A program made the translations under genes and the position numbers. From positions 3,844,001 through 3,908,000 of the forward strand of contig CM022679.1 in the NCBI GenBank assembly GCA_012295275.1: 64,000 bases of DNA, read 5' to 3'. The notes beneath the pieces were generated by a model, which had not been told where the DNA came from, ran no database searches, and saw only the letters and a program-made list of their open reading frames with translations. Below are positions 6,107 to 60,738 of the stretch, piece by piece (positions within the stretch are counted from its first letter, which is position 1; each line of letters starts with the position of its first letter). This DNA is from Chrysomallon squamiferum. Lineage: Eukaryota; Animalia; Mollusca.

Positions 6107-6403
6107 TTATACTCCATGTTGTTGATCAGGCAGGCGGCTGAACGTAATTTGAAGCCTGAGGCGCTGTCATACTTCCTTTCTGTTCAACATGTTCACCTAT
6201 AGGTGGCGCTGTTGACCAATTATATGTCGGATAGGACACATTACCCGCTGTCGTTGTCTGCTTAAGGTTGATGTAGTAAACTTGGGTTTGAGGGACATTG
6301 TATTGAATGACATGGCCGAAGCTTCTATCACTTTTCGTACTGGCAACGAAAAGAATTCCAGATATGATGGCGAGGACTGAGCCGATGGTGTTAAGAGCAA
6401 ATG
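6107..6403 (-). pseudogene. Claudin-like exon-3 fragment, copy B
   Basis: Only the 3' part of exon 3 is present, cut at ~6403 and joined to the upstream region of the hairpin unit. A 1-nt insertion at ~6127 turns PPAY into PPA-stop. Confidence 0.8.
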
Positions 6404-6654
6404 AAGTAAACTGTTTGTATTAAACCGAATAAAAACAAGAAAAACCCGATAAATTCGATATTATTTTATGTTTCTTTGAATAATATCAAGAAAGGTTTCA
6501 CATTATCATGATTACAGAAATATTTTTTAAATTGGTATTCTTAAAAGGAATCACATCAAAATTACTTATATACACATATCACAGAATGATAATGTTACAA
6601 AAGATTTTAACGCGAAAAAAAATCAACGAAAAAAACACAAGTTCTTGTTGGCGA

Positions 6655-6760
6655 CGCCATTGCTAACGTCAAGGTGACTTCTTTTACGTCGTAGTTGTGT
6701 CTATATAAGGACGAGAAAACAGAGAATGACGTAAGCCTGAGGGTTCTTTTTATAAAACAA
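6655..6760 (+). promoter_or_regulatory. Putative Pol II promoter of the hairpin-RNA unit
   Basis: TATATAA 6702-6708 and TATAAAA 6751-6757. CRE/ATF-like AACGTCA, TTACGTC and TGACGTAA (6727-6734). Conserved upstream of copies 2 and 3. Confidence 0.5.
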
Positions 6761-6779
6761 TTGAACATCCACTACCCCG

Positions 6780-7124
6780 TTGATTTATATCCGGGATGTG
6801 GAAAAACGGGACGCTGATTAAACAGCTAATCTCAAGGAGTGTTTCTTTGTTCACTGGATCCTGCATCCTGCATCTTGGTGTTGTGTTTGGTTGGAAATCG
6901 TCTTCAAAACTGATTGTTGATGATCCGCTCCGAGGTTCATTACTACGGTTAGAGGTCGGGACACCCCGAACTTTCCAGAACGTGACCGAAGGGAGGATCT
7001 TCTGTAATCAAAAGCGAAGACGACTCAAGCATTCTGCAGCTCTCAACGATGACAGGATGGAATCCAGCGACCGAAGGAAACAAAAACAAATCTACCAAAC
7101 CCCGGCCCTTTTTAGGGCCACCAA
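6780..7124 (+). ncRNA. Putative structured RNA: ~240-nt rod-like hairpin ending in a histone stem-loop, copy 1
   Basis: Nested complementary blocks symmetric about TCGGG-acac-CCCGA (6956-6969), spanning 6841-7081. GGCCCTTTTTAGGGCC at 7104-7119 followed by ACCA. 5' end inferred from TATA spacing. Confidence 0.6.
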
Positions 7125-7137
7125 ATCTTAAGAAAGT
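7104..7137 (+). terminator. Histone-type 3' processing signal (stem-loop + purine-rich downstream element)
   Basis: ccaaacccc-GGCCCT TTTT AGGGCC-acca, then AAGAAAG ~10 nt after the stem. Matches the 6-bp stem/4-nt loop of replication-dependent histone mRNAs. Confidence 0.8.
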
Positions 7138-7405
7138 TTCTTTTTATACAATTGCTAATCCAGTTTCTAATTTTAGTTAAATAATAAAAGAAAAAAGAAA
7201 AAGAAATAATCTATTTATTTATTTTTATTTTTATTTATTTATTTATTTATTTTGACTCCACGTGGAGAATATTAAATTTATATAAACAAATATAATAGAA
7301 AGACTGAGTCCCCGTAAACTTGCTCATAAATTCAAGACGACAAACGTATAATTACTTCGTGGGAATCAATGATTGTCCTCGGTTATTCAGTAACTTTTTT
7401 TTTAA

Positions 7406-10511: not shown

Positions 10512-12288
10512 TCAAAGACAGTGACACTTTCGATGTCATTTACAATATGAGAAACAACTGTGAAATAAAAATCATGTAAAACATTAAGAAGGAGAAAAAA
10601 ATAAGGAAAAGAATAAGGAAATAAAACAACTCCAACACCAACAACATTGTTATCACTGCCATCTTAGTCGTCGACGTCGTCATCACATTAATCAAGAGAG
10701 TCTCAACTATTTACGTTTTGGAGACATCAGAGGTGAGTTTTTAGTAAGCTGGGAAAGTAGCCACCAGAACGACTGTGTTAAATTATCTACATTGATTCAG
10801 CTATCTATCTATCTATATATATCCATCTATCCAACCAACTGACCATCTGTCCATCTATCTATTTCTGTCTGTCTTTCTTTATATATACATATATGTCTAT
10901 CTATCTACCTACCTACGTATTTACTTATCTCTGGATCAATCTATCTATCTATCTATCTGTCTATCAATCTACTTAACCATGAGAAATAGGTCTGTGCAGG
11001 CACTTACATATTTTTATTAATTTGTTTATATTCTGTGGGTAATACAGGTATATTTTACCTCCTATTATTATCATATTTTTATTAATTTGTTTATATTCTG
11101 TGGGTAATACAGGTATATCTTACCTCCTATTATTATCATATTTTTATTAATTTGTTTATATTCTGTGGGTAATACAGGTATATCTTACCTCCTGTTATTA
11201 TCATATTTTTATTAATTTGTTTATATTCTGTGGGTAATACAGGTATATCTTACCTCCTGTTATTGTCGTCCCACTTACTATGTTGGGTGACATTTGAGGA
11301 GAGCACATGTTCACCACAATGGCCATGATTCCACCAAACACCAGGAATATGAACGCCAGAATCTGAACAACTCGGAAAGCATCGTAAACAGCTGAAGACA
11401 CAATTAAAACTCACATTTTATAATGAATGAATGTAATTTATTATGGATGATTACAGTTTACAGTACATAAAGATAATTTACTATTATATAACTATAATGT
11501 TACTTGTATAAATATAATATACCGATATATAAAAATAATGCATTTTTTATAATCATAATGTACTGTTGTATAAGATTAATGTACTGTTATACAATTACAA
11601 TGTACTGATACAGATGTGTAATGTACTGTTATATGATTATTATGTAGTGATATGTAAATGTAATGTCCATCTAATGTAAATATAAGTAAAATGGCCTGTT
11701 ATATAATTACAATGTTATATAAGAATAATGTACTAATACATAAGTATAATCTCCTCTTATATATGTATAGTGTAATTGCAACATGTACTGTTATATACGT
11801 ATAATTACATGTTATTATAATGTACTGTCACCTCAGTATAATAATGTACAGTTATGTAATTAAATGTACTGTTGCATAAGAATAATGTACCGTTCTACAA
11901 TTAAAATGTGCTGACATATATGATAATATAACGATAGTGTACTGTCATGTAATTGTAATTGTCAGTATAAATATTATATAAGTAACTTTGGGTGTGTACA
12001 ATAAATAATTTTAAATAAAATGTACAGATATATTACATATAACTACCAGCTGTGATTCCAGATTATATAACTCACTAATTGGGACGAATCAGAATTACCT
12101 GTAACTCCAAATTCATATGAACTACAAGAATCCATGGAAGCTGAGCAAATTTGCCACAAGCCAATCAACTCATTGCTGGCCTCGAACCAAGCAGGCGTGG
12201 CGAAGCCAACAAGGAAAAAGAGAAAACTGAAAAACACACCAAATGTTCCTACTTTGTAGACAGTCGACGTCTCGGACCAGTTCGGCAT
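10219..12288 (-). CDS. Claudin-like copy D, tail-truncated by premature TAG (~173 aa, four TMs retained)
   Basis: Exons 12288-12099, 11391-11254, 10412-10219 with intact splice sites. TAG at 10221-10219 where most paralogs have CAG/CAA. Ancestral tail continues in frame to 10003. Confidence 0.75.
11020..11265 (-). repeat. 65-bp minisatellite made of repeated exon-2 splice donors
   Basis: GGAG|GTAA donors at 11254, 11189, 11124, 11059 (65-nt period). Related arrays follow exon 2 in copies A, E, F, G. Confidence 0.85.
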
Positions 12289-14117: not shown

Positions 14118-14939
14118 ACCATTTCTCTTGGTGATGTTTTGCATATAATGCTACTGAAAGAGATCTCACTGTAAGATATTCCTAATGTTTCGATCACAAT
14201 TTGAAAAATACGTTTTAATAATAAAAGAAAAATGGGCCGAACCTAAATTATTAGAAAAACTAACCTGTTATCTTTTATTAGACGCTGAGTTTTTCAAGAG
14301 AGCATCCTCATATCCCCAGTATCCCCCCAGAATATGATTACGTCAGCCTCAAAATTTACTGGATTTACTAAGATTACGAAACCGATCACAAATTTAAATA
14401 TATGAGTAAATGCTGGTTTTCTTTCTTTCTTCTTATTCTTTTTTTTTATTTTTTTTATTTTTTATTTTTTATTTTTTATTTTTTTTTTTTTTACATTTGT
14501 TGTGGTGTTTTCTTTGACTGTTATTTATCATTTTTAAAGAAATATTTGCACTGAATATTGCATATTTTATACTGTTTATTAGTTAGTCGTAACTGAATAC
14601 CTTGAAAACGCTGTCAGAAGTAAACTGTTTGTATTAAACAGAATAAAAACAAAGAAAAACTCGATAAATTCTGTATTATTTTATCTTTCTTTGAACAATA
14701 TCAAGAAAGTTTTGACATTATCATGATTACAGAAATATTTTTATAATGTATTCTTAAACAGAATCACATCAAAAATACTTATATACAAATATCAGAGAAT
14801 GATAATGTTACAAAAGATTTTAACGCGAAAACAAATCAACGGAAAAAACACAAGTTCTTGGTGGCGACGCCATTGCTAACGTCAAGGTGACTTCTTTTAC
14901 GTCGTAGTTGTGTCTATATAAGGACGACAAAACAGAGAA
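14118..14939 (+). repeat. Upstream/promoter-only remnant of the hairpin-RNA unit
   Basis: Homologous to ~23830-24640 and ~32900-34000. Ends just after the first TATA (14915-14921) and abuts the stop of claudin copy E. Confidence 0.85.
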
Positions 14940-14950
14940 GGATTTACGTT

Positions 14951-18693: not shown

Positions 18694-19642
18694 ATGAACA
18701 TTACAGAATATGAAGAATTCACTGTTTCTAACATGGGTCAGATGGCAGTGGAAGCAATACTTATGGCGTTTATTTGTATCGTCAATATGCTGACGTTGTT
18801 TACCGTTTATTTCAACCGTAAACTGTGGACGGTACCTAACATGTACATTGTATCCCTGGCCGTTGCGGATTTTCTTACCGGCCTTACACTTCCGTACCAG
18901 ATTGTTTTTCACATTCCAAATATCAAGGCTGTATTTGATCGAAACAAATTCCTTTGCATTTGTCGACACGTATTCTTTTTCATTCTTCTCACGACTTCCA
19001 TTCTTAACATGATGCTCATAGCACTGGACAGATGGGCATGCATCACGTTCCCTTTCCAATACGGACGTCTGGCAACGATGCGAAGAGCTGGACTTCTCAT
19101 TGTCTTTTCGTGGGTTCTGGGAATAACGTACGGAACCGTCCCCCTATATCTGAATAACTGGAAGAATGGTGAAAAGTGTTATTTTTTCAAAGTTCTCGTT
19201 GCAGAGTATCAACTCTACGTTCTAGGAGGAAGCTTTCTCGGTTCTGTCGTTCTCATCACGGCATGCTATGGACACATATTTCGAATTGCAGCCCGAGAAC
19301 GACAACGTATTCAGAGTCTCACAGTGACGTCCAGTGAGAAAAGAAACCAGTGAGAAAAGAATGGCGAAGTTCAAAAACGATTGGGATTTGGCCGTCATGT
19401 TTAGCGTCGTGGTTGGAGTATTTATCGTCTGCTGCATGCCTGCTTTTATCTTCATAACTGTAACGTACACAGCAGGAGTCGCAGGAACTGTGAATAGTTT
19501 CACAATACCGCTCCTCGTGACCAATTCTGGAATGAATTTTATTATTTACGTCGTGAAAAACAGGCAGTTTCGAACTGCACTGAAGTCTACCTTTTTGAAA
19601 TGCCGTCCACGCGTTAATGATTCAGGTAGCAGAACTGCATAA
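18694..19642 (+). pseudogene. Frameshifted duplicate of the class A GPCR
   Basis: Nearly identical to 4014-4958, with a net +4 nt change at ~19337 in ICL3 giving a stop at 19353 after TM5. Confidence 0.85.
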
Positions 19643-21945: not shown

Positions 21946-22631
21946 ATGCAGGTAAATTAAAACGTACATTTTATAATGAATGTATATGATTTATTATGGA
22001 TGATTATAGTTTACAGTACGTAAAAATAATTTACTATTATATAACTGTAATGTTCCTTGTATAAATATCATATACCGATAAATAAAAATAGTGTATTTTT
22101 TGTAATTATAATGTACTGTTATATAAGAATAATGTACTGTTATACAATTACAATGTACTGATACAGATGTTTAATGTACTGTTATATAATTATTATGTAG
22201 TGTTATGTAAATGTAATGTAAATATAAAGTAAATATAAGTAAAATGGCGTGTTATATAATTACAATGTTATATAAAAATAATGTATTTATATATAAGTAT
22301 AATGTCCTCTTATGTATGCATAGTGTACTGTTATATACGTATTACATATGTTATTATAATGTACTGTCATCTCAATATAATAATGGACAGTTATGTAATT
22401 AAATGTACTGTTACATAAGGATAATGTACCGTCATACAATTACAATGTGCTGATATATACGATAATATAACGATAGTGTTCTGTTATATTATTGTAATTG
22501 TCAGTATAAATATTAGATAAGTAACATTGGGTGTACAAGCAACCACAGATTAGTAGAATAAATAATAATAAAAATAATGATGATATTAGTAATAACGTCA
22601 GTATTCACAAGTAAATCAACTGTGTACATAC

Positions 22632-24177: not shown

Positions 24178-24695
24178 TATTCTTTTTTTTTTTTTACGTT
24201 TGTTGTGGTGTTTTCTTTGACTGTTATTTATCATTCTTAAAGAAATATTTGCACTGAATATTGCATATTTTATACTGTTTATTACTTAGTCGTAACTGAA
24301 TACCTAGAAAACGCTGTCAGAAGTAAACTGTTTGTATTAAACCGAATAAAAACAAGAAAAACCCGATAAATTCGATATTATTTTATGTTTCTTTGAACAA
24401 TATCAAGAAAGGTTTCATATTATCATGATTACAGAAATATTTTTAAATTGGTATTCTTAAAAGGAATAACATCAAAAATACTTATATACACATATCACAG
24501 AATGATAATGTTACAAAAGATTTTAACGCGAAAACAAATCAACGGAAAAAACATAAGTTCTTGTTGGCGACGCCATTGCTAACGTCAAGGTGACTTCTTT
24601 TACGTCGTAGTTGTGTCTATAAAAGGACGACAAAAAAGAGAGTGACGTAAGCCTGAGGGTTCTTTTTATAAAACAATTGAACATCCACTACCCCG

Positions 24696-25040
24696 TTGAT
24701 TTATATCCGGGATGTGGAAAAACAAGACGCTGATTAAACAGCTAATCTCAAGGAGTGTTTCTTTGTTCACTGGATCCTGCATCCTGCATCTTGGTGCTGT
24801 GTTTGGTTGGAAATCGTCTTCAAAACTGATTGTTGATGATCCGCTCCGAGGTTCATTACTACGGTTAGAGGTCGGGACACCCCGAACTTTCCAGAACGTG
24901 GCCGAAGGGAGGATCTTCTGCAATCAAAAGCGAAGACGACTCAAGCATTCTGCAGCCCTCAACGATGACAGGATGGAATCCAGTGACCGAATGAAACAAA
25001 AACAAATCCTCCAAACCCCGGCCCTTTTCAGGGCCACCAA
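24696..25040 (+). ncRNA. Putative rod-hairpin RNA with histone stem-loop, copy 2
   Basis: TATAAAA 24667-24673, rod 24757-24997, GGCCCTTTTCAGGGCC 25020-25035 + ACCA + AAGAAAG. Confidence 0.6.
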
Positions 25041-25609
25041 ATCTTAAGAAAGTGTCTTTTCATGCAATTGCTAATAAGTCCAAATCGAAGAAAGAAAGAA
25101 ACAAATTTAAAAATTCACATAAAAGCATAAATATTATAATTATTTTTCAGTTAATAATTATTTCTCATAGAAAATAGTCACTCTGAAACTTTAAAAGAAC
25201 AAACATAACAAAATAAATTTTAACTAAATTAGAAGTTTGAATTAAAGTTACGAGCAAGTAACAAAGCACGGAAATAAATAACTAAAGAATCATATATATA
25301 TAAATACAAAAGTAAGATTTTGGGGAAGGGTATATTTTTAATTTTTTATATTTATTTATTTTTAAAAATTTTAAATTCAGTTTTAATTATTTTTTATTTT
25401 TATTTTTTATATTATTTATTTATTTTTATTTTTATTTATTTATTTATTTATTTATTTTGACTCCACAAGGAGAATATTAAATTTATATAAACAAATATAA
25501 TAGAAAGACTGAGTCCCCGTAAACTTACTCATAAATTCAAGACGATAAATGTATAATTACTTCGTGGGAATGAATGATTATCCTCGGTTATTGAGCAACT
25601 TTTATTTAA

Positions 25610-30128: not shown

Positions 30129-30417
30129 GATGTAAAAACTTGTTAATCCTCAGACAGAATCAGAAATGTATGTAATGAAGGTTTGTAGGTCTAATGAAAC
30201 TATGTTACCCAGCGAGCTAAACGTCTTAGTGGGGTATGAAACAAGGAAGTTTGAAAACAATGACAGTGTCTTTATTGACTGTGTGTTGCTAGACACTAAA
30301 CAAAACACTAAATAGATTTTACCTGAAAAGAATACACGGATCAGTAGGTGATCATTGTGTACCTGTAAGAGACTACGACGTTATGTAAAGACGCGGATCA
30401 AGAGGTGATCACGTTTT

Positions 30418-31115
30418 ATTTAATTTAGAGTGAACAGTGGTACATTTCAAATATTATATTATCTTTAATTTAGAGTGAACAGTGGTACATTTCAAATATT
30501 ATATTAAATTTAATTTAGAATGAACAGTGGTACATTTCAAATATTATATTATATTTAATTTAGAATGAACAGTGGTACATTTCAAATATTATATTATATT
30601 TAATTTAGAATGAAGAGAGATAAATTTCAAATATTATGTTATATTTAATTTAGAATGAAGAGTGGTACATTTCAAATATTATATTTAATATAGAATGAAG
30701 AGAGATAAATTTCAAATATTATATTTAATATAGAATGAAGAGAGATAAATTTCAAATATTATATTTAATTTAGAATGAAGAGAGATAAATTTCAAATATT
30801 ATACATTTAATTTATAATGATGATTGTTAAATTTCAAACATTATATTATATTTAATATAGTATGAAGAGAGATAAATTTCAAATATTATACATTTAATTT
30901 ATAATGATGATTATTAAATTTCAAATATTATATTATACTTAATTTAGAATGAAGAGAGAAATTTCAAATATTATACATATAATTTATAATGATGATTGTA
31001 AAATTTCAAATATTATATTATATTTAATTTAGAATGATGATATGTAAATTTCAAATATAATATATTATTTTATAATGATTATTGTTACATTTCAAATATT
31101 ATATTATATTTAATT
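30418..31115. repeat. AT-rich ~38-43-bp minisatellite
   Basis: Tandem ATTTAATTTAGAATGAA(CAGTGGTAC/GAGAGATAA)ATTTCAAATATTAT units. Only about three units at the paralogous site ~12580-12700. Confidence 0.85.
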
Positions 31116-31331
31116 TCAAATATAATACTAATAATAATGATGACGATAATAATAATGATAATACTAATAATAATGATGACGATAATCAAAATTTTAATAC
31201 TAATAATAATGATGACGATAATAATAATGATAATAATAATAATAATGATGATGATAATAACATAAATGATGATGATGATGATATATGAATAATAACGTCA
31301 GTATTCACAAGTGAATCAACTGTGTACGTAC

Positions 31332-33535: not shown

Positions 33536-34051
33536 CTTTTTTGTTTTGTTTCGTTTGTTGTGTTTTGTTTTTGACTGTTATTTATCATTTCTAAATAAAT
33601 ATTTTTATTGAATATTGAACAATTTATGTTCTTTTTTTACTTAATTCTAACTAAATGACTAGAAAACACTGTCAGAAATAAACTGTTTGTATTAAACAGA
33701 ATAAAAACAAAGAAAACCCTGATAAATTCGATATTATTTTACCTTTCTTTGAATAATATCAAGAAAGTTTTGACATTATCATGATTATAGAAATATTTTT
33801 GATTTGGTATTCTTAAAAGGAATAACATCAAAAATACTTATATACACATATCAGGGAATGATAATGTTACAGAAGATTTTAATGCGAAAACAAATCAACG
33901 CAAAAAACACAAGTTCTTGTTGGCGACGCCATTGCTAACGTCAAGGTGACTTCTTTTACGTCGTAGTTGTGTCTATATAAGGACGACAAAACAGAGAATG
34001 ACGTAAGCCTGAGGGTTCTTTTTATAAAACAATTGAACATCCACTACCCCG

Positions 34052-34396
34052 TTGATTTATATCCGGGATGTGGAAAAACAAGACGCTGATTAAACAGCTA
34101 ATCTCAAGGAGTGTTTCTTTGTTCACTGGATCCTGCATCCTGCATCTTGGTGCTGTGTTTGGTTGGAAATCGTCTTCAAAACTGATTGTTGATGATCCGC
34201 TCCGAGGTTCATTACTACGGTTAGAGGTCGGGACACCCCGAACTTTCCAGAACGTGACCGAAGGGAGGATCTTCTGCAATCAAAAGCGAAGACGACTCAA
34301 GCATTCTGCAGCCCTCAACGATGACAGAATGGAATCCAGTGACCGAATGAAACAAAAACAAATCCCCCAAACCCCGGCCCTTTTCAGGGCCACCAA
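34052..34396 (+). ncRNA. Putative rod-hairpin RNA with histone stem-loop, copy 3
   Basis: TATAAAA 34023-34029, rod 34113-34353, GGCCCTTTTCAGGGCC 34376-34391 + ACCA + AAGAAAG. Homology to the other copies stops ~35 nt after the stem. Confidence 0.6.
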
Positions 34397-34819
34397 ATCT
34401 TAAGAAAGTGTCTCTTCATACAATTGCTTTCGTAATCATTGTTAAATAATAACAAAATAAAGTGTAATAAATAATCTAGTTGTGATAATAAAAATAATTA
34501 TGCTTGATAAGCTCATAAATAATTATAATATAAAAACAAATAAATAATCATTAGTACTAATAAAGCTAAAATAAATGATAATAATAAATAATTATTCAAC
34601 ATAAATAAATAAATAAATATTTTTTATAAGTTTTTATGAATAGTCGATTAGTTCATAGGTAATCAACGGAAACACATAATATGGGAATATCATTTTAGAG
34701 TTGTTTCCCTTAGATCAGCAAAAAGGATAAAAAATAAATGTTCTGGATTCGTTGCTGATAGTAGTAATGTTTATAATAAGCTTTTAATTTGTAGGTTATT
34801 TTGGTTATTTATAAGATTC

Positions 34820-51547: not shown

Positions 51548-54500
51548 ATGTCAAAGTCCCAATTTGGTAAATATGGAACACTGGAAGTTACTGAATCATT
51601 TGGCACTGAAATATGTAAATTATGTGCCCTTTGTGAGTTCGATTGTTTTGTTTACATCAAATGGATAAATAATCTGGGCAACCGTCGTTTATTTGTCAGC
51701 TTTAAAATACTTTTATACTGCTTTGAAAGGTTCACAAACGAGCTATATTATTTTAAATTTCCCTGAATTTCTTGTACAAATGGCGCGGGTTTTAAGCTGT
51801 ATTTACGTGTCAAAGCCTATTTCTTACGAAGAACAATCAGTGGATCTTATTGTATTGGCTCATTATATTTATTGAAAATCAATACCTTTTAACAGCATGA
51901 ATGTTTTCACATGATTTTTGAAGAGTTTGATCATTATAATTATAATTTTGATGCAGGGGTGTGGTTTTGCTTCCCTCAAGGGTTTTTGTTTGTTTACCCT
52001 TGTTAAAAATGAAATTGCAATTTACTAAATATTGTATACATACAGAAATACACTGAATAAATTTTTTTTTAAATGTCATTTAGCCATTTAAAAAGTTCCT
52101 CAAGTGAAATATGGTTTTGAATTTTAATTCTATACAAAATACTTTTACATTCCAAATTGCTAGCATGCACTAACAGTAAAAATTTAGATTATACTATTTC
52201 ATTGAACATTGTAGATGTTTATAACTGTTTTTAATTTAATTAGGAAATAACGTATAGTTCATACCAGAAGTAACAGTAATTAATATACTGTAGAATTCTG
52301 AGTACAGACATACCTCCGAATTTTAGGTATTATATCATGCACAGGATAAAGCACTCACTTTCATTTAATCATTTGCCATCTTACTAAATTTAGATGAAAT
52401 GTTTAACTTTGCACAAATTTTAGTTATGTATAAGTTTCTACCACAACTTTGAATAAACTGACAGGTATATTTTTAAAAATTATGATTCTGGTCTAAAGTA
52501 CTGAAACAGAAAGTTTTTGTTTGTTAAACAAACAATAACCAAATTTTTGTATAATAACCAACTAAGAAGTATATATTCTGTTATTTGTAAACAATTTTAT
52601 AAAAGACATATATTTGACATTTTATCTTATTTTAGTTAAAATCTAAATTCTGCATAATTAATGATGATACATGTGTTCCTTAGCGTGACGGCTACAATAT
52701 GCTTGTATAATTAACACCATTATATATATGACTGTCAGTACAAACATTGATAGCAAGTTTGAAAAAGTTAAAAATCTTCTAAATATTATTTTGGGAACAA
52801 ATATATGTGAAATTTAAGTATTTCAATCTGCTACCTAATTGAATAAGATTTTATTTTGCTTTGTTATTTTTTTCTTACTATTTTATCTTATTATAATTTT
52901 TTTCTTCTTTCAGGAACAAATAAAGAAGATATATTAATAGTGAGAACTAGTTCTGCTGGATCAGAAACATCAGCAGCAGGAAACGTAGAAATAGGCAACA
53001 ATGTGAATAATTCCAATATTACAATGATAAGGACCTCTGCTGGCATTGTTCTGCCTCAGACATCAAGTTCTGGCTGCCCAGAAATGACAACACTTCAGTC
53101 AATTCAGGCAGAAATTGCCAAGCTACAAGAAGCTGGACTTGTTTCTAAGAACGAAACAATTATTGTTAAGGCGTCTTCAGATGTTGTTGATTCATTAAAA
53201 AACAGTTCACAAACCATTACTGTGAACACCTCAGCAGCTGCAGGAACAAACACTAAACCAGGAGTAGGGCAGATGCAAGTGTCAGTTGTTGAAATTCCTG
53301 TAAATGATGAGAAACCGGTTCTGAAAAGACAGCTACCTTCCACCAGTGCCAATAGTCCTGTTGTTACCAAGGTGATAATCACAAAGAACCCGAACACAAA
53401 TCAGCCACAACCTGTTCCTGTAGATGTAACACAGCTGCAAGGACAGACAGTGTCAGCCAGCTCAGTAACAGCGAGCTCGGTTCCAACAAACACAATACAG
53501 GTGTCAAAATCTCAAACAAAGACTTACACAATCTCATCTCAGGGTACTTTATCACCTGTTAAAAGTGTTCTAGGTGGGCTACCAGTTACACCCACCAAAT
53601 TGACAATACCAGCAAGTCGATTACCGATTTCACCATCAAGGACTCAGACAAAGATCACTATGATCCCTGTATCGATGGCAAAATCTCCACAGAGGATTAT
53701 TGCTGTGTCTTCTGGAAGTTCTCTTGTAACACGGACTATTGCAGACATGTCTAACACACAAACAACAAGTACAGCCACATTGTCAAAGCCATCCACTATA
53801 ACAATGTCCCCATCTAAAGTCATAATTAAACATGGCAATGGGGTAAGCAAACATGGTTTCTTTATTGATAATTAACTTCCTAAAAATTAACCCTGACCAT
53901 AGTTTTAAAACATTATTCCAGTAAGTATTCAAATGTAATTGTTGTTAATATTATCATTATCTAAGTAGTTGCAGTGCTTAAGTTTCTTCAACAGTTTCAA
54001 GTTGTTTTTCATGTGATAATAATAGCAAGCAGTCCAGGAGTTTATAAAAAAGATTCTTAAGATTCATACAATTATTATATAAAAAGTTAATGACAGACTG
54101 GTCAGATTTAGTATATCCAGAATACAACAAAAATTAAAATTATTGTAGTAAGGAAGTTTAACTTATAATATATACCTGTTTTTATACAGCACAAAGAAAA
54201 AACATTGAAATTCAAGTATTTCTGCACACCATTCTTTTTACACTAATTTTAAGTGAATCTCTGTGTTAAGTACTGTTTACTTCTTTGCTGTAATTCTATT
54301 TTTCTTCAGTGATTGGGCTTGAAAATTCATCACCAGTTTAAAAACCTAACATTTTAACCTTTCACTGCTGTAGTTTTTCTCTATGATTTTTGTAAATGTC
54401 ATATTGATGTAACCTTTAAAAAAAGTGATATTACCTCTTCTGAAAAGATTTTACTCAATCTAACAAAAGCAAAAGATAAAAAAAAAAAAAAAAGACACAT

Positions 54501-56934
54501 TTTTAAAATGTATTTTTTTTATATAAATATTTTTTAAAAATAAAATGAGAAGTTTAGATATTTATTATTACAGCAGAAGGTGCTAGCTCAGGTGAAAAAT
54601 CCACCAGCTATAGCACCAGCCCAGCCAGCCATTCGACCACTTACTTTTGGATCAGGTATTCAACAAATACAAGTTCCAGGCAGCAAGTTCCACTATGTGC
54701 GACTTGTTTCTCCAACATCAACATCTAACACAGGTATTTTTTTTTTTAGTGTGATGGTGCCTGTTTCTTCAGTATGTTTCCTGTATAATAATGTAATAGT
54801 ACATTTATCTTGAAAACAATTACACCTTTTGTTAGTTCATTCTGTTAAATTAGAGCTACCTCAAGAAGAGAAATACAAAATTGCAGACTGGTCTAGGACA
54901 GTTGGACAAAATATATCTGTGACAAAGTTGTGTTTATTCTTATAATTTCCTTTATTTTTTAATTTTAATTTTTTTTAAATTTATTTTAATTATTTTTTTT
55001 TCCTTCTTTTTACTAAGTATTCAAAGAATAATAAAAGCTGGGAAATCCATTAAAGCAATGAAAATAGTTATATGTAGTTTGACAAAATATATTGAAAATA
55101 TCTTTATACAGGATTGGTAAAATTTAAATAATTTAAAGTGTTTGTGATGATTCACTGATAATGTTTTTTGCTTTGATGACTATTTATACCTGGTAGATGA
55201 AAACTAGGTAGTTTTTTTTTTTTTTTTTTTTTTTTTTTGAAATTACATTTATTTGTGAACTTTATTGAAACAATAAAATACTCAAGGGGGACTTTGATAG
55301 TTGTTTTATTTTTAATTTTTATATTTGTCTGTGTGTAAATTTAATTTTTAATTTATTTATAAATTATATAAACATTTGTTTGGATTTGTTTTTTATTCCT
55401 AAAAAAAGTAATAAGTGAATTTATTATTATTATTATTTATTTATTTTGAAAAACTTCCAAGATTTAAATAGATTTTAATAATATGATCTCTTTTTTTTTT
55501 TTTTTTTTTTTTTTTTCTCTCTCTCTACCTCTTTCAAAACACACACACACAGTCACACACACCAAACATTTCAACCTTTGTCCATTAGTGTAATTGTGAG
55601 AATGAGTACTTGCACGATTTTTTTTTTTTTTTTTTTTTTTTTTGTTTTTTAATTTTGTATTTTAATAATATTTTCTTCCAGTTCATAAACCCATGTCAAC
55701 AATAGCCCAAGTTGTGCAAACAAGTCGTCCAATAGCACCTGCATCAGTAGCAACCAATACTCAGTCCAGTTCAGCACAGGTCAAAATCACATTGCCTGTT
55801 CAAACACCACAGATGGTATGGATTTTAATATTTTATTGCCTTGACTTTCAAATGTGGATCATGGGTAACCATAATGATTAAAATGTAGTACAAGAAATAG
55901 GTCAAGGCTGTAGAAAACAACCCCTGAATTGATAAAAAGTATTGTTGTCTTTGTTCATGTGTTGTTTTTTTCCCAAAAAATGAGTGTCAGAATTTAGTAG
56001 TAGTTGTTGTAATAATTATTATTAGAAATGTAAATCGAAATTTTTTTATTTAAAATGTTTTATGTAAATGGCTTTTGATGAAGATTGATTTCTTTTTTCC
56101 TTTTGTTGTTTTATTCTTATTTTATTTAATTTTTTTCATTTAAAAAACAAAAACATTAATCAATTTTTCCATTTAAAAATTAGTCACAAACTTTTGTCTG
56201 TACATACACATGTGTATCTCTGTGTGTGCCTCTGTACACTTACATACAAAATTTGAAAAAAATATTTATATATATTTTTTTCCACTCTGTAGGTAACTCC
56301 GAAATCTGTGTTATCAGGAGGTGGCCAGAATGTTCAGCGGATACTGCTTCCTAATACCACTTCAATCCGGCCAGCTACAACCACAGTTCAAATACGACCT
56401 GCGAGCACACAGAATGTGCAGGGCTTGCCCCCAGGGACCGCTATTATATCTAGCACTGGAAATATACCCAGTCTGCAAGGCTTTGCTCTGGTTCCTGCTA
56501 ATTACGTAACACAGGTAGAATTTACTTTTACTTTTTAACAGAGATAGTAATTTTGATTTGGTTTGTAACATTTGCTAATGTTGTTTTTGTTTTTTGTTGT
56601 GGTCTTTTTTAATTTTCTTAATTTTTTATTTTTTATTTGTGTAATGAGATCAAATATAACTGTCTTTATTAACTTAACACTTGAATCAATGAAAATTTTA
56701 TGTTTTCAAGTCCTACTATTGTGCTAATATTAGTAGTTAATAGATACAAACATACAACAAAATCTGTCACTTCATTGTCAGACAAACTATTTAAGTTTGC
56801 ATTTATTTTGTATTACAATTTTTTGTTTGATATTAAAATAATTGTTTTTAATTATTTGTTCTCAGATTCAGCAGCAACTGGTCAAGTCATCTCAACAACA
56901 GACAACACAGCTGTCTAACCAAACAGCAACTCAA

Positions 56935-56969
<35 letters not shown>

Positions 56970-59900
56970 ACAACAACAACAACAACGTGATTATGTACAA
57001 ATTGCCAGCAGTGATCCAAATGTTACTGCAAACACTATTTCTAGGAATTCTGTTAATGGGTTAGTGTTAATTTATTCAGAATTTATCTAGACTTGTAATT
57101 ATGTGGATCTATTCAATTTGTATTGTTTAAATTTATGTAAACTCTGAAGTGACTATTGCAGAAAGGTGCAACCAAAGAAAATAATAAACATGACTTAAGT
57201 AAACTTTGATTTCTATAATTAATTCTAAAAACATGAAATCCTTTCATTAGATAATTTAATTATTATTGGGTGGTTTTTTGTGGGGGGGGTCTCAGTTTAT
57301 TCAATTTTTTATTAAAGAAAAAATAAAGAAAATTTTAAACATAAAATTTTAAGAGAATTTTAAATTAGTTTACTGCACCTTTTGTTGTCACCATAACTAT
57401 TTACAACTTCTTCAGGTTCCTTTTTTTCTTTCTATGTTTTTTGCTGTTTTTTTTTTTTTATATCATTTTATCAAAAGTAGATGACATGAGAAAAAATTTT
57501 TTGATGACATTATGTTAGTATCAAAGCAGTTTCTCCTTCTATTCAAGTATAGCACTGTTTAAAAATGTTAAAAAGCCTAGTTTAAATTACAGACACATCC
57601 AAAAGATCACTGCTACTCCAAAAAGCCTGGCAGCAGTGTGTATCCTCTTTCATATGTTTATTTTTAAAATGTTTGACTCTTAATAAACCTTTAATATTTA
57701 AATATGTTCATATATTTAATCAGTTACTGAAAAATAATTAAAAATTGTTTTTTTTTGTGTTTTTTTTTTTAATTTTTATTTGTTTGTTTGTTTGTTTCAG
57801 TACAACATTAGAAGCCACAGGTGCTCGTCCGAGAAAACCATGCAATTGTACAAAGTCTCAGTGTCTAAAGTTGTAAGTTGTCAGCAACACAGCACAGTAA
57901 ATAAGTATAAAAAAATGAGTAAATAAATAAAAAATAAGTAAAAAGCAAAATGGATTATATAAATAAAACAAGCTTAGATTACACATGTTATTACAGGCAT
58001 AAAAGTTTAACACTTAATGTCACTTTATTTTAACATTTTCCATTTCTTGATATCTCAGATGTTACTTTATGCGAATATAAATGTCTTTTGCATGCAGTGT
58101 AAAATAGTTAAAGGAAATTAAAGTAACTGTTTAAAAAAGAAGAAGAAGAAAAATTCTCTGTAATTGAAAAATATTAACTGTAATTCATTATAAGGTGATG
58201 AAAAGGATTAATTTATAAAGATAATGTGTTTATAAGACAATCAGTGTTTAAAAATAGGCTCATTCAATTCATTAATTGTTTTTACAGATATTGTGATTGT
58301 TTTGCCAATGGTGAATTTTGTCATAACTGTAACTGTACGAGTTGTGCCAACAATCTGGAACATGAAGAAGAGAGGTCACGTGCCATTAAATCGTGCCTTG
58401 ATAGAAATCCAATGGCATTTCATCCAAAGATTGGAAAAACAGGTAAGAAAATAAAAATATGTGCTAAGATACTAATGTATTTTGTATGGATTTGCAGATA
58501 TATAAAATTGTTCTCTTTCTTTCTGTTTTGTATACCACTTTTTCACTTTTTCCTTTTTTTTTTTTACAAAAAAAATTGAAATAATGTTCTGTTGCTCTCT
58601 ATTTTTATATACCAAAGAAAATATATATTAAAAAATATTTCCCAGTTTTTAATTTTTTTTTTTTTTTTCAAACATAAAAAAATAATAATGAAAAAAAAAA
58701 CAGTTGACAAAGCAAGACATTCATTTTTTGTATTGTTAATTGACCTGATAGTATAATGAGTTTCTAAAACCCCAAAAATATTTTGTTTATAATTGTTTGT
58801 TATTTTTTGTTTTTTAATGTAAGTTTTGTGTTAATTGCAGGGCGAGGAAGTGCAAAAGATTCAGGGCGTAGACACAACAAAGGGTGCAATTGTAAAAGAT
58901 CAGGATGTCTAAAAAATTACTGTGAATGTTACGAGGTGAGACATGTTGGGTTTTTTTTGTCTAAAGAAATAAAAAGTTACTCTTCATTACTTTTCAAATC
59001 TTGAATGTATAAGGCATGACAAAAAAGTAAATGAGACAACTATGTACAACCAATTTGCATACATGAGATTTAACCTGTTTATTTTACTTTAATTTGTATT
59101 TGAATCAGAGAAAGTTATACGTTTTGTTACCCCTATTAAATTATTATAAATATGTGTGAACTGTTATATTACATATAATATATATACTTTTTTTTTTTTT
59201 TTTTTTTTTTTTTCAGGCTAAAATTATGTGCTCAAATATATGCAGATGTATTGGTTGTAAAAACTTTGAGGAAAGTCCAGAAAGAAAGACGTTGATGCAT
59301 TTAGCAGATGCAGCAGAAGTAAGGGTACAGCAACAAACTGCTGCAAAAACAAAACTCTCCACCCAGATGTCTGGCTTACCATCTAAACCACCACTTTCTT
59401 CTGGAAGTGGAGAAAGGTATTTGTTTTGTTGTTGTTGTTTGGTTGGTTGGTTTTTTTTATTTATTTTTTTGCATGTTTGTAAATATCTGGCTTAAGAGAT
59501 AAACCACCACTTTCTTCTGGAAGTGGAGAAAGGAATTAATATAACTTAAATAATTCAGCAACTAAATCATCATGTTTTCTTATCTTTTAAAAATTAGGCA
59601 AAATAAATTAAGAAGTTTATATCGAAATAATTCTCTACATTTTATTCAATATTAAAATAATACTGACAGTTGTGTTCACGTTTTATAATGTAATAGTAAA
59701 AATTACAAAATATGTATATTTTATAACAAATTAGTCCTTACAATAATTGATGTTCTTTTTAATTTTAATAAGATGTATATAAGTATAAAAAAAATTATTA
59801 CATTAATACTAATACATTCATTGCTTAAATTATATTTTATAATATAATAATAAATATCACTATTTTGCAACACTAAGTGTTTATTAATACAGATAATATA

Positions 59901-60738
59901 TAGTATATACAGTGATATTTAATTACAGTTTTAAATCAGCAAATAAACAAGTATAAGTGAATGCAGTTTTGTAGTACCTGGCTAAAACTATGGGTTCTTC
60001 ATTTCAGATACTACAGGCATCTTGTATTCAACTTATCTTTGAGTACTCACCAAGTGAATTCCTTTTACATTAAAATATTTTATCAACTGTTCAACTCAAA
60101 ATTTCTATTTCACTTTGTTTTTGATTATTATTTTTGCAGATTACCTTTTACTCTGATAACAACTGAGGTAGCTGAGGCAACTTGTGCTTGTTTGTTGGCA
60201 CAAGCAGAAGAGGCTGAACGGTTAAAGATGCCTCCAGTTGTTCAGGAAAGAATGGTGATTGAGGAATTTGGTCGCTGCCTCATGCAAATTATAGAATCTG
60301 CAAACAAAACAAAAAGTATAACTTTTTTCTTCAGTTTTCTGTTTTCTCCCACAGAGCTCACTCATTAACTGTCTCTTTTTTTCTGTGTCGAATTGTATTT
60401 TTATAAATGATCATAATTTTGTGTCTCTAAAGTTCCCTTATTTCTATTTAATTTTTTTTTTTTTTTTTTTTTTTTTGTAACTTTTCTAATTCATTTTTTT
60501 TTTTTTTTTTTTCTGTTTTTATCAAAAAGACCACTATTTGTGCTTTCATCTAAGAGATGTGATACATAACATGTTCCTTTCCGAGATTTGATGAGTAGCC
60601 CAGAGTCATAAAATCATAGTAGTTGGTTTGAGGAATTGCAGCAAATGTTTTTTCATTTTAAAACTAAATGAATATATTTTGATGTACTTGTATGTAGTTG
60701 ATTCTGTTTTTCTTTCAGTAAGTGACCAGGTTCTCTGA
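51548..60738 (+). CDS. LIN54: LIN54 / tesmin-like MuvB (DREAM) subunit with two CXC domains
   Basis: Approx. exons 52914-53842, 54574-54732, 55682-55815, 56293-56514, 56867-57058, 57801-57872 ([16 protein letters not shown]), 58288-58442 ([21 protein letters not shown]), 58841-58935 ([21 protein letters not shown]), 59217-59416, 60140-60316. First (51548-51566) and last (60719-60738) exons are tentative. Confidence 0.92.
56932..56986 (+). repeat. CAG/CAA polyglutamine tract in LIN54
   Basis: Run of ~18 Gln codons within an exon. Confidence 0.85.

Follow-up and report, generated by a model that had tools for sequence, protein, structure and literature searches.

The unit at the left of the window (the whole 64,000-nucleotide stretch analyzed here) raises the question of what, if anything, is made from an imperfect hairpin of about 240 nt set between signals like those of a histone gene. 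Because this rod lies between a TATA promoter and a histone-type end signal, the unit is likely, as judged from its signals, to be a small non-coding RNA gene that is predicted to borrow the histone finishing machinery. The initial annotation had already favored an RNA fold on the strand of a TATA and a stem-loop, and our analysis agrees that the unit reads as a plus-strand RNA gene, with a TATA box, a histone stem-loop, and a downstream element. The features are listed in Table 1.

Table 1. Positions in the window of the features of the rod unit and of its copies
Feature	Position	Strand	Remark
Copy 1	6403–7159	+	rod 6841–7081
Copy 2	24320–25075	+	rod 24757–24997, stem-loop at 25020; allele of RNA run X3
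Copy 3	33675–34428	+	rod 34113–34353, stem-loop at 34376; its two rod alleles in RNA run X4
Truncated copy	14617–14942	+	upstream part alone, up to about the CRE-like site, then a claudin-like exon
CRE/ATF-like site TGACGTAA	6727–6734	+	in 3/3 full copies
TATA box TATAAAA	6751–6757	+	in 3/3 full copies
Predicted start (about 6778–6782) and leader of ~60 nt	6778–6840	+	copies 2 and 3 identical (0/63 differ)
111-codon open frame	6796–7131	+	crosses rod and stem-loop; probably non-coding
296-nt segment absent from rod-less relative	6807–7102	+	leader joined to stem-loop in the relative
Basal stem, 5′ strand	6840–6877	+	partner about 7043–7082; best-paired part of rod
Imperfect rod	6841–7081	+	left arm 6841–6960, loop 6961–6964, right arm 6965–7081
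Histone-type stem-loop (7104–7119) and ACCAA	7104–7124	+	predicted cut after 7124
Purine-rich downstream element (HDE) AAGAAAG	7130–7136	+	10 nt past stem, in 3/3 copies

The rod was recovered where the initial annotation had placed it. The copy-1 sequence gives a single rod without branches (−93.6 kcal/mol, z −5.43), and none of 200 dinucleotide shuffles was as stable. The rods of copies 2 and 3 gave −101.2 (z −6.72, with 0/100 shuffles as stable) and −94.9 kcal/mol, respectively, so that z ranged from −5.4 to −6.7 across the copies. The minus strand of the rod was also significant (−82.7, z −4.48). In a coarse scan of 791 segments of 241 nt (step 80, with no segment centered on a rod), five of the six with the lowest energies overlapped the three rod copies. 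The computed structures contained nine of the ten helices that had been claimed; TGTTTG/CAAGCA was absent, and the predicted fold uses another register there. The apical helix (6956–6960/6965–6969) closes the loop as described, pair probabilities of the GGTTCAT/GTGACC helix were near 0.5, and one pair of CATCCTG/CAGGATG is broken in copy 3, on which the annotation was silent. In copy 2, 73% of the bases are paired and the longest helix is 9 bp. The basal third of the arms is the best matched (33/42 columns versus 50/84 above it, p 0.046 in a post hoc comparison), and the basal stem of ~35 bp shows pairing probabilities near 0.9 or more at most positions. A loosely paired zone spans 6878–6897, and the A-rich 3′ flank of the rod is computed as unpaired.

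The surrounding unit occurs in three full copies in the window, which sit within larger duplicated blocks with rearranged junctions. The window holds a claudin-like membrane-protein gene array, identified by weak Pfam matches, and a rhodopsin-type receptor. The array (1–34430) is a rearranged tandem with four first-exon and seven last-exon copies, 74–91% identical to the query copy. Two intronless rhodopsin-type receptor ORFs lie in the same interval, the second of which (18694–19642) is split by a frameshift, and minisatellites of 45, 65–71, and 21 bp recur in the array units (30417–31116, 11007–11264, and 22026–22466). Exons of a lin-54 homologue, apparently single copy, are found to the right of the array at 53024–60368; its sole named match among 49 was from the snail Biomphalaria glabrata (41% identity). 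By its genes the window is animal DNA, and on this one named match the host is probably a mollusc. No tRNA genes were found in the window.

On the promoter side, we take the word TGACGTAA at 6727 to be a CRE/ATF-like site. The region 6665–6757 seems to be doubled, with two CRE-like words and two TATA-like words (6702–6708 and 6751). A small inverted repeat (TCCAC...CCCG/CGGG...GTGGA, 6768–6801) straddles the predicted start. It could therefore pair in DNA, or in RNA started from the upstream TATA, whereas the predicted RNA would contain only part of it; folding puts it in other registers. Transcription by RNA polymerase II is quite probable.

The 3′ end of the unit matched Rfam RF00032 at 7099–7143 (32 bits, E 3.4e-7; 2 bits below the gathering score of 34), which was the sole Rfam match within 6500–7300 at E up to 10. 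The second stem pair of the 16-nt stem-loop is G-C and its third loop base is U in every copy, and the combination of stem-loop and AAGAAAG occurs in the three full copies and nowhere else in the window. Histone pre-mRNA is described as being cut five nt after the stem-loop (bioRxiv 10.64898/2026.10.14.759114), and this stem-loop is said to end no known cellular mRNAs but those of histones (PMC5100578). Pfam, PDB, and pairwise histone comparison all failed to match a histone ORF in the unit. Cleavage by U7/SLBP after 7124 is suggested with fair probability by these signals. In a metagenome scan for the stem-loop with a purine word, 17 loci were obtained, 12 of which carried an H4, H3, or H2B ORF ending 36–50 nt before the loop; one of the other five was cut by a contig edge, one was a non-histone gene, and three had no stem. 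None of the 17 shares more than 3′ signals with the rod unit. The non-histone locus (L013, 1–957, minus strand), from another organism, comprises two tandem genes with ATTGG (CCAAT) boxes, TATA, and histone stem-loops. They carry a small Cys-rich non-histone ORF, frameshifted in the second copy, which has an AAGAAAG element; full-length relatives of the protein have 133 and 130 aa (P0050 and P0051) and no Pfam domain. L013 is a non-histone protein family with histone-type ends and is unrelated to the rod.

Descent of the body from histone H4 was considered because of a by-eye likeness of the leader to the H4 start and of the long frame to H4 residues about 43–65, and was rejected. Local alignments of copy-1 DNA gave z values of 2.0–2.8 against three of six distinct H4 sequences and 0–0.9 against the other three, H3 gave similar z values, and about 80 comparisons were made in all. 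BLASTP found nothing, and the codon profile was at or below the shuffle level in all six H4 comparisons. One of 18 rows of the codon profile stood out (H2B, copy 1 right arm antisense, 1/150) and was not repeated in copy 2.

The stretch was found in five runs, all examined as contigs: four RNA runs of one study (X1–X4) and an unlabeled run (X5) with the behavior of DNA, from which the assembly may have been made. An X3 contig covering 6778–7018 (depth 60.9) starts 27 nt after the TATA box (24694 in copy 2) and shows no differences from copy 2, with the reservation that contigs prove neither transcript start nor strand. X3 has no cover on 6200–6771 at 88% likeness, where X5 has cover, and X4 covers the rest of the rod (24815–25009) with copy-3 alleles. 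Contigs of X1 and X2 start upstream of TATA at depths under 4, and low-depth X3 contigs run across the promoter of a relative (3.2) and across a stem-loop and downstream element (8.4). DNA or unprocessed RNA is thus present in the RNA runs. The main X3 contig spans the predicted Drosha site, indicating that uncropped RNA accumulates. An RNA end at 6992–7026, where X1–X3 contigs stop, was considered and rejected, as X4 runs on to 25009 of copy 2 and holes prove nothing. In the four RNA runs, no A>G change beyond genomic alleles was seen among the rod changes listed, and no back-joint among the joints listed, within the reach of contigs, which drop rare variants.

Contigs in two runs point to rod-less forms, and the rod is therefore likely to be a 296-nt cargo, one body in a family of histone-type shells. 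In X5, a joint from 24722 to 25019 was present in one contig (depth 170, with a short side of only 20 letters), and a 92-nt loose end at 6809 runs into the stem-loop through the same kind of joint. A second short form consisting of leader, linker, and stem-loop was found in X5 and X3. Leader and stem-loop are retained in the rod-less relatives, and activity may therefore reside in the shell. A 184-nt X5 rod contig identical to copy 2 reached a depth of 417, compared with 51 for the copy-1-specific 3′ contig, which corresponds very roughly to about 8 loci, depth being no copy number. Rod variants in X5 include partial deletions as well as an insertion of 4 nt and a deletion of 1 nt. Another X5 contig, at 24912 (depth 30.8), seems to link the right arm directly with a leader-like end, without left arm and apex. 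An X3 loose end at 25019–25072 represents a relative that shares the stem-loop and downstream region and has other sequence before them; this sequence loosely resembles the 3′ end of the rod and may belong to a diverged rod or to a body of another kind. In X5, sequence upstream of the transcript skips 91 nt between 6690 and 6782 and also stands in several further contexts, and the summed depth of X5 is highest on the promoter.

The initial annotation had argued from G·U wobbles that the fold is selected as RNA on the plus strand. The wobbles do not bear this out: in a strand-neutral alignment of the two arms, plus-strand G·U and A·C mismatches stood at 8:8, 7:7, and 6:8 in copies 1–3, with the same counts under all three gap settings. 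Watson-Crick pairs make up 82–84 of the 112 aligned columns. The strand energy gap of 10.5 kcal/mol was reached in 51 of 300 strand-neutral relabelings, in which the arm bearing each mismatch was swapped at random. When the order of the columns was shuffled, 270 of 300 versions folded at least as well as the real arms, and the clustering of mismatches was no stronger than in shuffled columns (223 and 202 of 300). Covariation gave the claim no support either, as none of 108 predicted pairs had a two-sided change among the three copies, which are near-identical and cannot test covariation; single changes among the copies kept three rod pairs and broke two. The arms are thus not demonstrably selected at the RNA level, there being no sign of it in the strand-neutral tests; a single hint in its favor is the better match of the basal third, which was compared post hoc. 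For this reason the rod is apparently an old inverted duplication, which would have become lodged in a histone-type shell, and, with no strand signal in the arms, its strand must be read from its surroundings.

The differences between copies 2 and 3, from far upstream to the tail, were 37/258, 16/197, 6/177, 0/63, 2/241, and 1/59. The upstream region (16/197, 8%) differed from the leader and rod together (2/304, 0.7%) with p 1.4e-5, and the comparison of promoter against transcript was borderline (p 0.056). Between copies 1 and 2, the differences are spread evenly, without a conservation contrast (p 0.77). Because of this evenness and the borderline promoter test, the homogeneity of the copies may result from gene conversion or from a recent origin by copying. 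The pattern of divergence is as expected either from gene conversion or from selection on the transcript, and we lean slightly towards selection. A Helitron-type end was considered for the unit and set aside, since the shared sequence fades out with no sharp end.

Our leading explanation, held tentatively, is that the unit makes a non-polyadenylated RNA whose rod is cropped as an oversized microRNA-type precursor. RNA polymerase II would transcribe the small repeated gene into a non-coding RNA of ~345 nt, and the SLBP/U7 histone pathway would make its 3′ end after 7124. The further steps are the most speculative: Drosha might cut about 11–13 bp above the rod base, the loose zone might be the perch for DGCR8/Pasha, and Dicer-1 might free a duplex of ~22 nt from about 6853–6875 and 7047–7070. 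The position of this duplex is deduced from the Drosha rules. The rod fits the motifs of these rules only in part: it has a basal UG within one nt and no mismatched GHG, and its CNNC, about 22 nt from the predicted cut, is too far away. This reading was chosen because molluscs are reported to be without the siRNA route, giant miRNA hairpins recur in invertebrates, and pairing in the rod is closest at the base and loosens above it. Molluscs are reported to lack Dicer-2 and the siRNA Argonaute, leaving the miRNA route (PMC11114477, PMC12479628). The annotation had proposed a Dicer/Drosha substrate; on the same sources, one of the siRNA type for Dicer is unlikely if the host is a mollusc, and one for Drosha/Dicer-1 is possible. 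Giant pre-miRNA hairpins are described in invertebrates, where a long stem and a bulge close to the site of dicing are required; the cases given are from arthropods, molluscs appear to lack such hairpins, and the word 'histone' is absent from the main text of that source (PMC12553114). The rod had no Rfam miRNA match at E up to 10, among models of short hairpins that may miss giant ones. This blank, the partial fit of the Drosha motifs, the apparent lack of giant hairpins in molluscs, and the uncropped RNA of the X3 contig all speak against the microRNA reading.

Two close rivals rank behind the microRNA reading. The first of them, which we consider rather unlikely, regards the rod as functionless or selfish cargo: a repeated histone-type shell would have picked up a decaying inverted duplication, which is transcribed since the promoter works, and the copies would owe their likeness to gene conversion or a recent duplication within the claudin-like array. 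A decayed inverted repeat agrees with the three strand-neutral tests, and the cargo reading with the rod-less, partly deleted, and length-changed forms in X5, the location of the copies in duplicated blocks with rearranged junctions, and the failure to find a homologue. What cargo accounts for less well is the course of the differences between copies 2 and 3, which fall steadily towards the transcript and return about 25–35 nt past the downstream element. TATA, stem-loop, and downstream element are moreover intact in all three copies, and the arms are about 25% diverged while the copies differ by 1–2.5%. The other close rival, an unlikely one, takes the intact RNA of ~345 nt as the product, its 3′ end shielded by SLBP and its rod acting as a putative decoy or scaffold for sensors or ADAR, or as an SLBP sponge. 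A build of short helices suits binding without activating dsRNA sensors. The longest helix of 9 bp would agree with this role, as would the X3 contig that runs from the predicted start through the rod base and the retention of leader and stem-loop in rod-less relatives; the lack of A>G changes beyond genomic alleles among the rod changes listed (in contigs, which hide rare edits) and of a selection signal on the fold argue against it.

The remaining alternatives are much weaker. A very unlikely one is a 7SL/EBER-type gene transcribed by Pol III, with termination at the U-run of the stem-loop. Such genes have an upstream CRE and TATA and an internal A box, and the unit offers a CRE-like site about 50 nt before the start and an A-box-like word at 6799 in copy 1 (one mismatch); the word is absent in copy 2, however, and there is no exact B box. 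The 330-nt body has no T4 run, the first being in the loop, but 21% of 5000 shuffles are also without one, and the downstream element kept at histone spacing would be unexplained. That a histone pseudogene shell received a foldback transposon or palindromic MITE is highly improbable. The annotation had named many dispersed copies with inverted repeats and target-site duplications, as of a palindromic MITE, as the finding that would speak against its proposal, and the hallmarks of a MITE are lacking as far as the window and the contigs show. The rod ends do read TG...CA and pair, and the decay of the arms is symmetric, yet no target-site duplication lies beside the rod, the flanks share no repeat, and the missing 296-nt segment does not stop at the inverted termini. 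Among the 9 loose ends listed out of 12, each rod context in X5 leads to the leader or to the stem-loop linker, the three copies in the window are all in one kind of shell, and depth suggests about 8 loci rather than hundreds (a rough figure, for the reason given above). We give an equally slim chance to a small protein-coding gene (111 codons) that ends either in the histone manner or at an alternative poly(A) site. The frame is open in all three copies, whereas 1.5% of 5000 shuffles keep it open and 4.1% keep any plus frame open, and L013 provides a non-histone ORF family with histone ends in another animal. Nevertheless, the stop codon lies beyond the predicted cut, X5 has frameshifting alleles, 296 is not a multiple of 3, and no relative was found among 5.8 billion proteins, 1.84 billion representatives, Pfam, PDB, and viral contigs. 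Least tenable of all is a domesticated viroid-like, delta-like, or retrozyme RNA, an origin that the annotation had also suggested. The unbranched rod, about 73% paired, falls within the retrozyme size range given as 150–300 nt in PMC7761336, which also describes retrozymes as lacking a promoter of their own, such as the rod unit has. We found no CUGANGA on either strand, no ribozyme above noise (the best was the hairpin ribozyme, 11.9 bits against 65, E 9.2), no head-to-tail units, no match in viral contigs, and, in contigs, no evidence of circularity. The statement of the annotation that the unit has no hammerhead core, SRP, or 7SK match stands, with both strands searched for CUGANGA and Rfam covariance models applied. 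Weak Rfam matches with E values of 1.3–9.2 (6A, TMV pseudoknot, mcrA, SPRY4-IT1, and hairpin ribozyme) were taken as chance.

Searches with the rod pattern in viral contigs, the leader in metagenomes, and a rod word in GTDB gave no homologue. The pattern of stem-loop and HDE drew a blank in viral contigs, and none of six stretches was confirmed for the ORF there. These blank scans are weak evidence because viral, metagenome, and prokaryote collections hold little animal DNA. Searches of open-access literature brought up neither a non-coding RNA that ends like a histone message nor any description of this element. Parts of known kinds, a histone-type shell and a hairpin, are newly joined here in one real feature, the function of the rod being a prediction. 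A bolder proposal, which we regard as doubtful, is an animal class of non-coding RNA genes on histone-type shells that use U7/SLBP instead of poly(A) and have swappable bodies, either empty or the 240-nt rod, in which the rod member would be a mollusc giant microRNA precursor tied to S-phase or maternal control of histone messages.

Should a natural non-coding RNA use the stem-loop/U7 end, the substrate range of this pathway would be widened and a structured RNA would follow the timing of histone messages. A cropped rod would count as a giant pre-miRNA in a phylum reported to have neither such hairpins nor the endo-siRNA route, and would be informative on the tolerance of molluscs for long self dsRNA. 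The presence of rod-bearing and rod-less members in one genome offers a natural control. Even if the rod is only cargo, histone shells would still be shown to spread without histones.

Among known systems, metazoan non-LTR retrozymes and viroid- or delta-like rods resemble the rod in size and high self-pairing, and differ from the rod unit, which has its own promoter and a histone-type end and neither ribozyme nor tandem units. Drosophila hpRNAs, as the unit is presumed to do, place an extended, imperfect inverted repeat in a Pol II gene of its own; those RNAs, however, need Dicer-2, reported absent in molluscs, and the rod has a longest helix of 9 bp and no arm-similar target gene in the window. 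With metazoan replication-dependent histone genes it shares TATA, a short intronless body, the canonical 16-nt stem-loop, and ACCAA and AAGAAAG at histone spacing. In contrast to these genes, its body is a rod, there is no histone ORF 25–60 nt before the 3′ end, and the long frame has no stop before the stem-loop. The rod matches no known miRNA family, unlike the giant pre-miRNAs of mir-989, mir-12, and mir-278, but as these are described in PMC12553114 it resembles them in its long structured stem, tightest at the base, in the loose zone about 35 bp up, in the single-stranded A-rich 3′ flank, and in an inter-arm length of about 170 nt, which is within the reported range.
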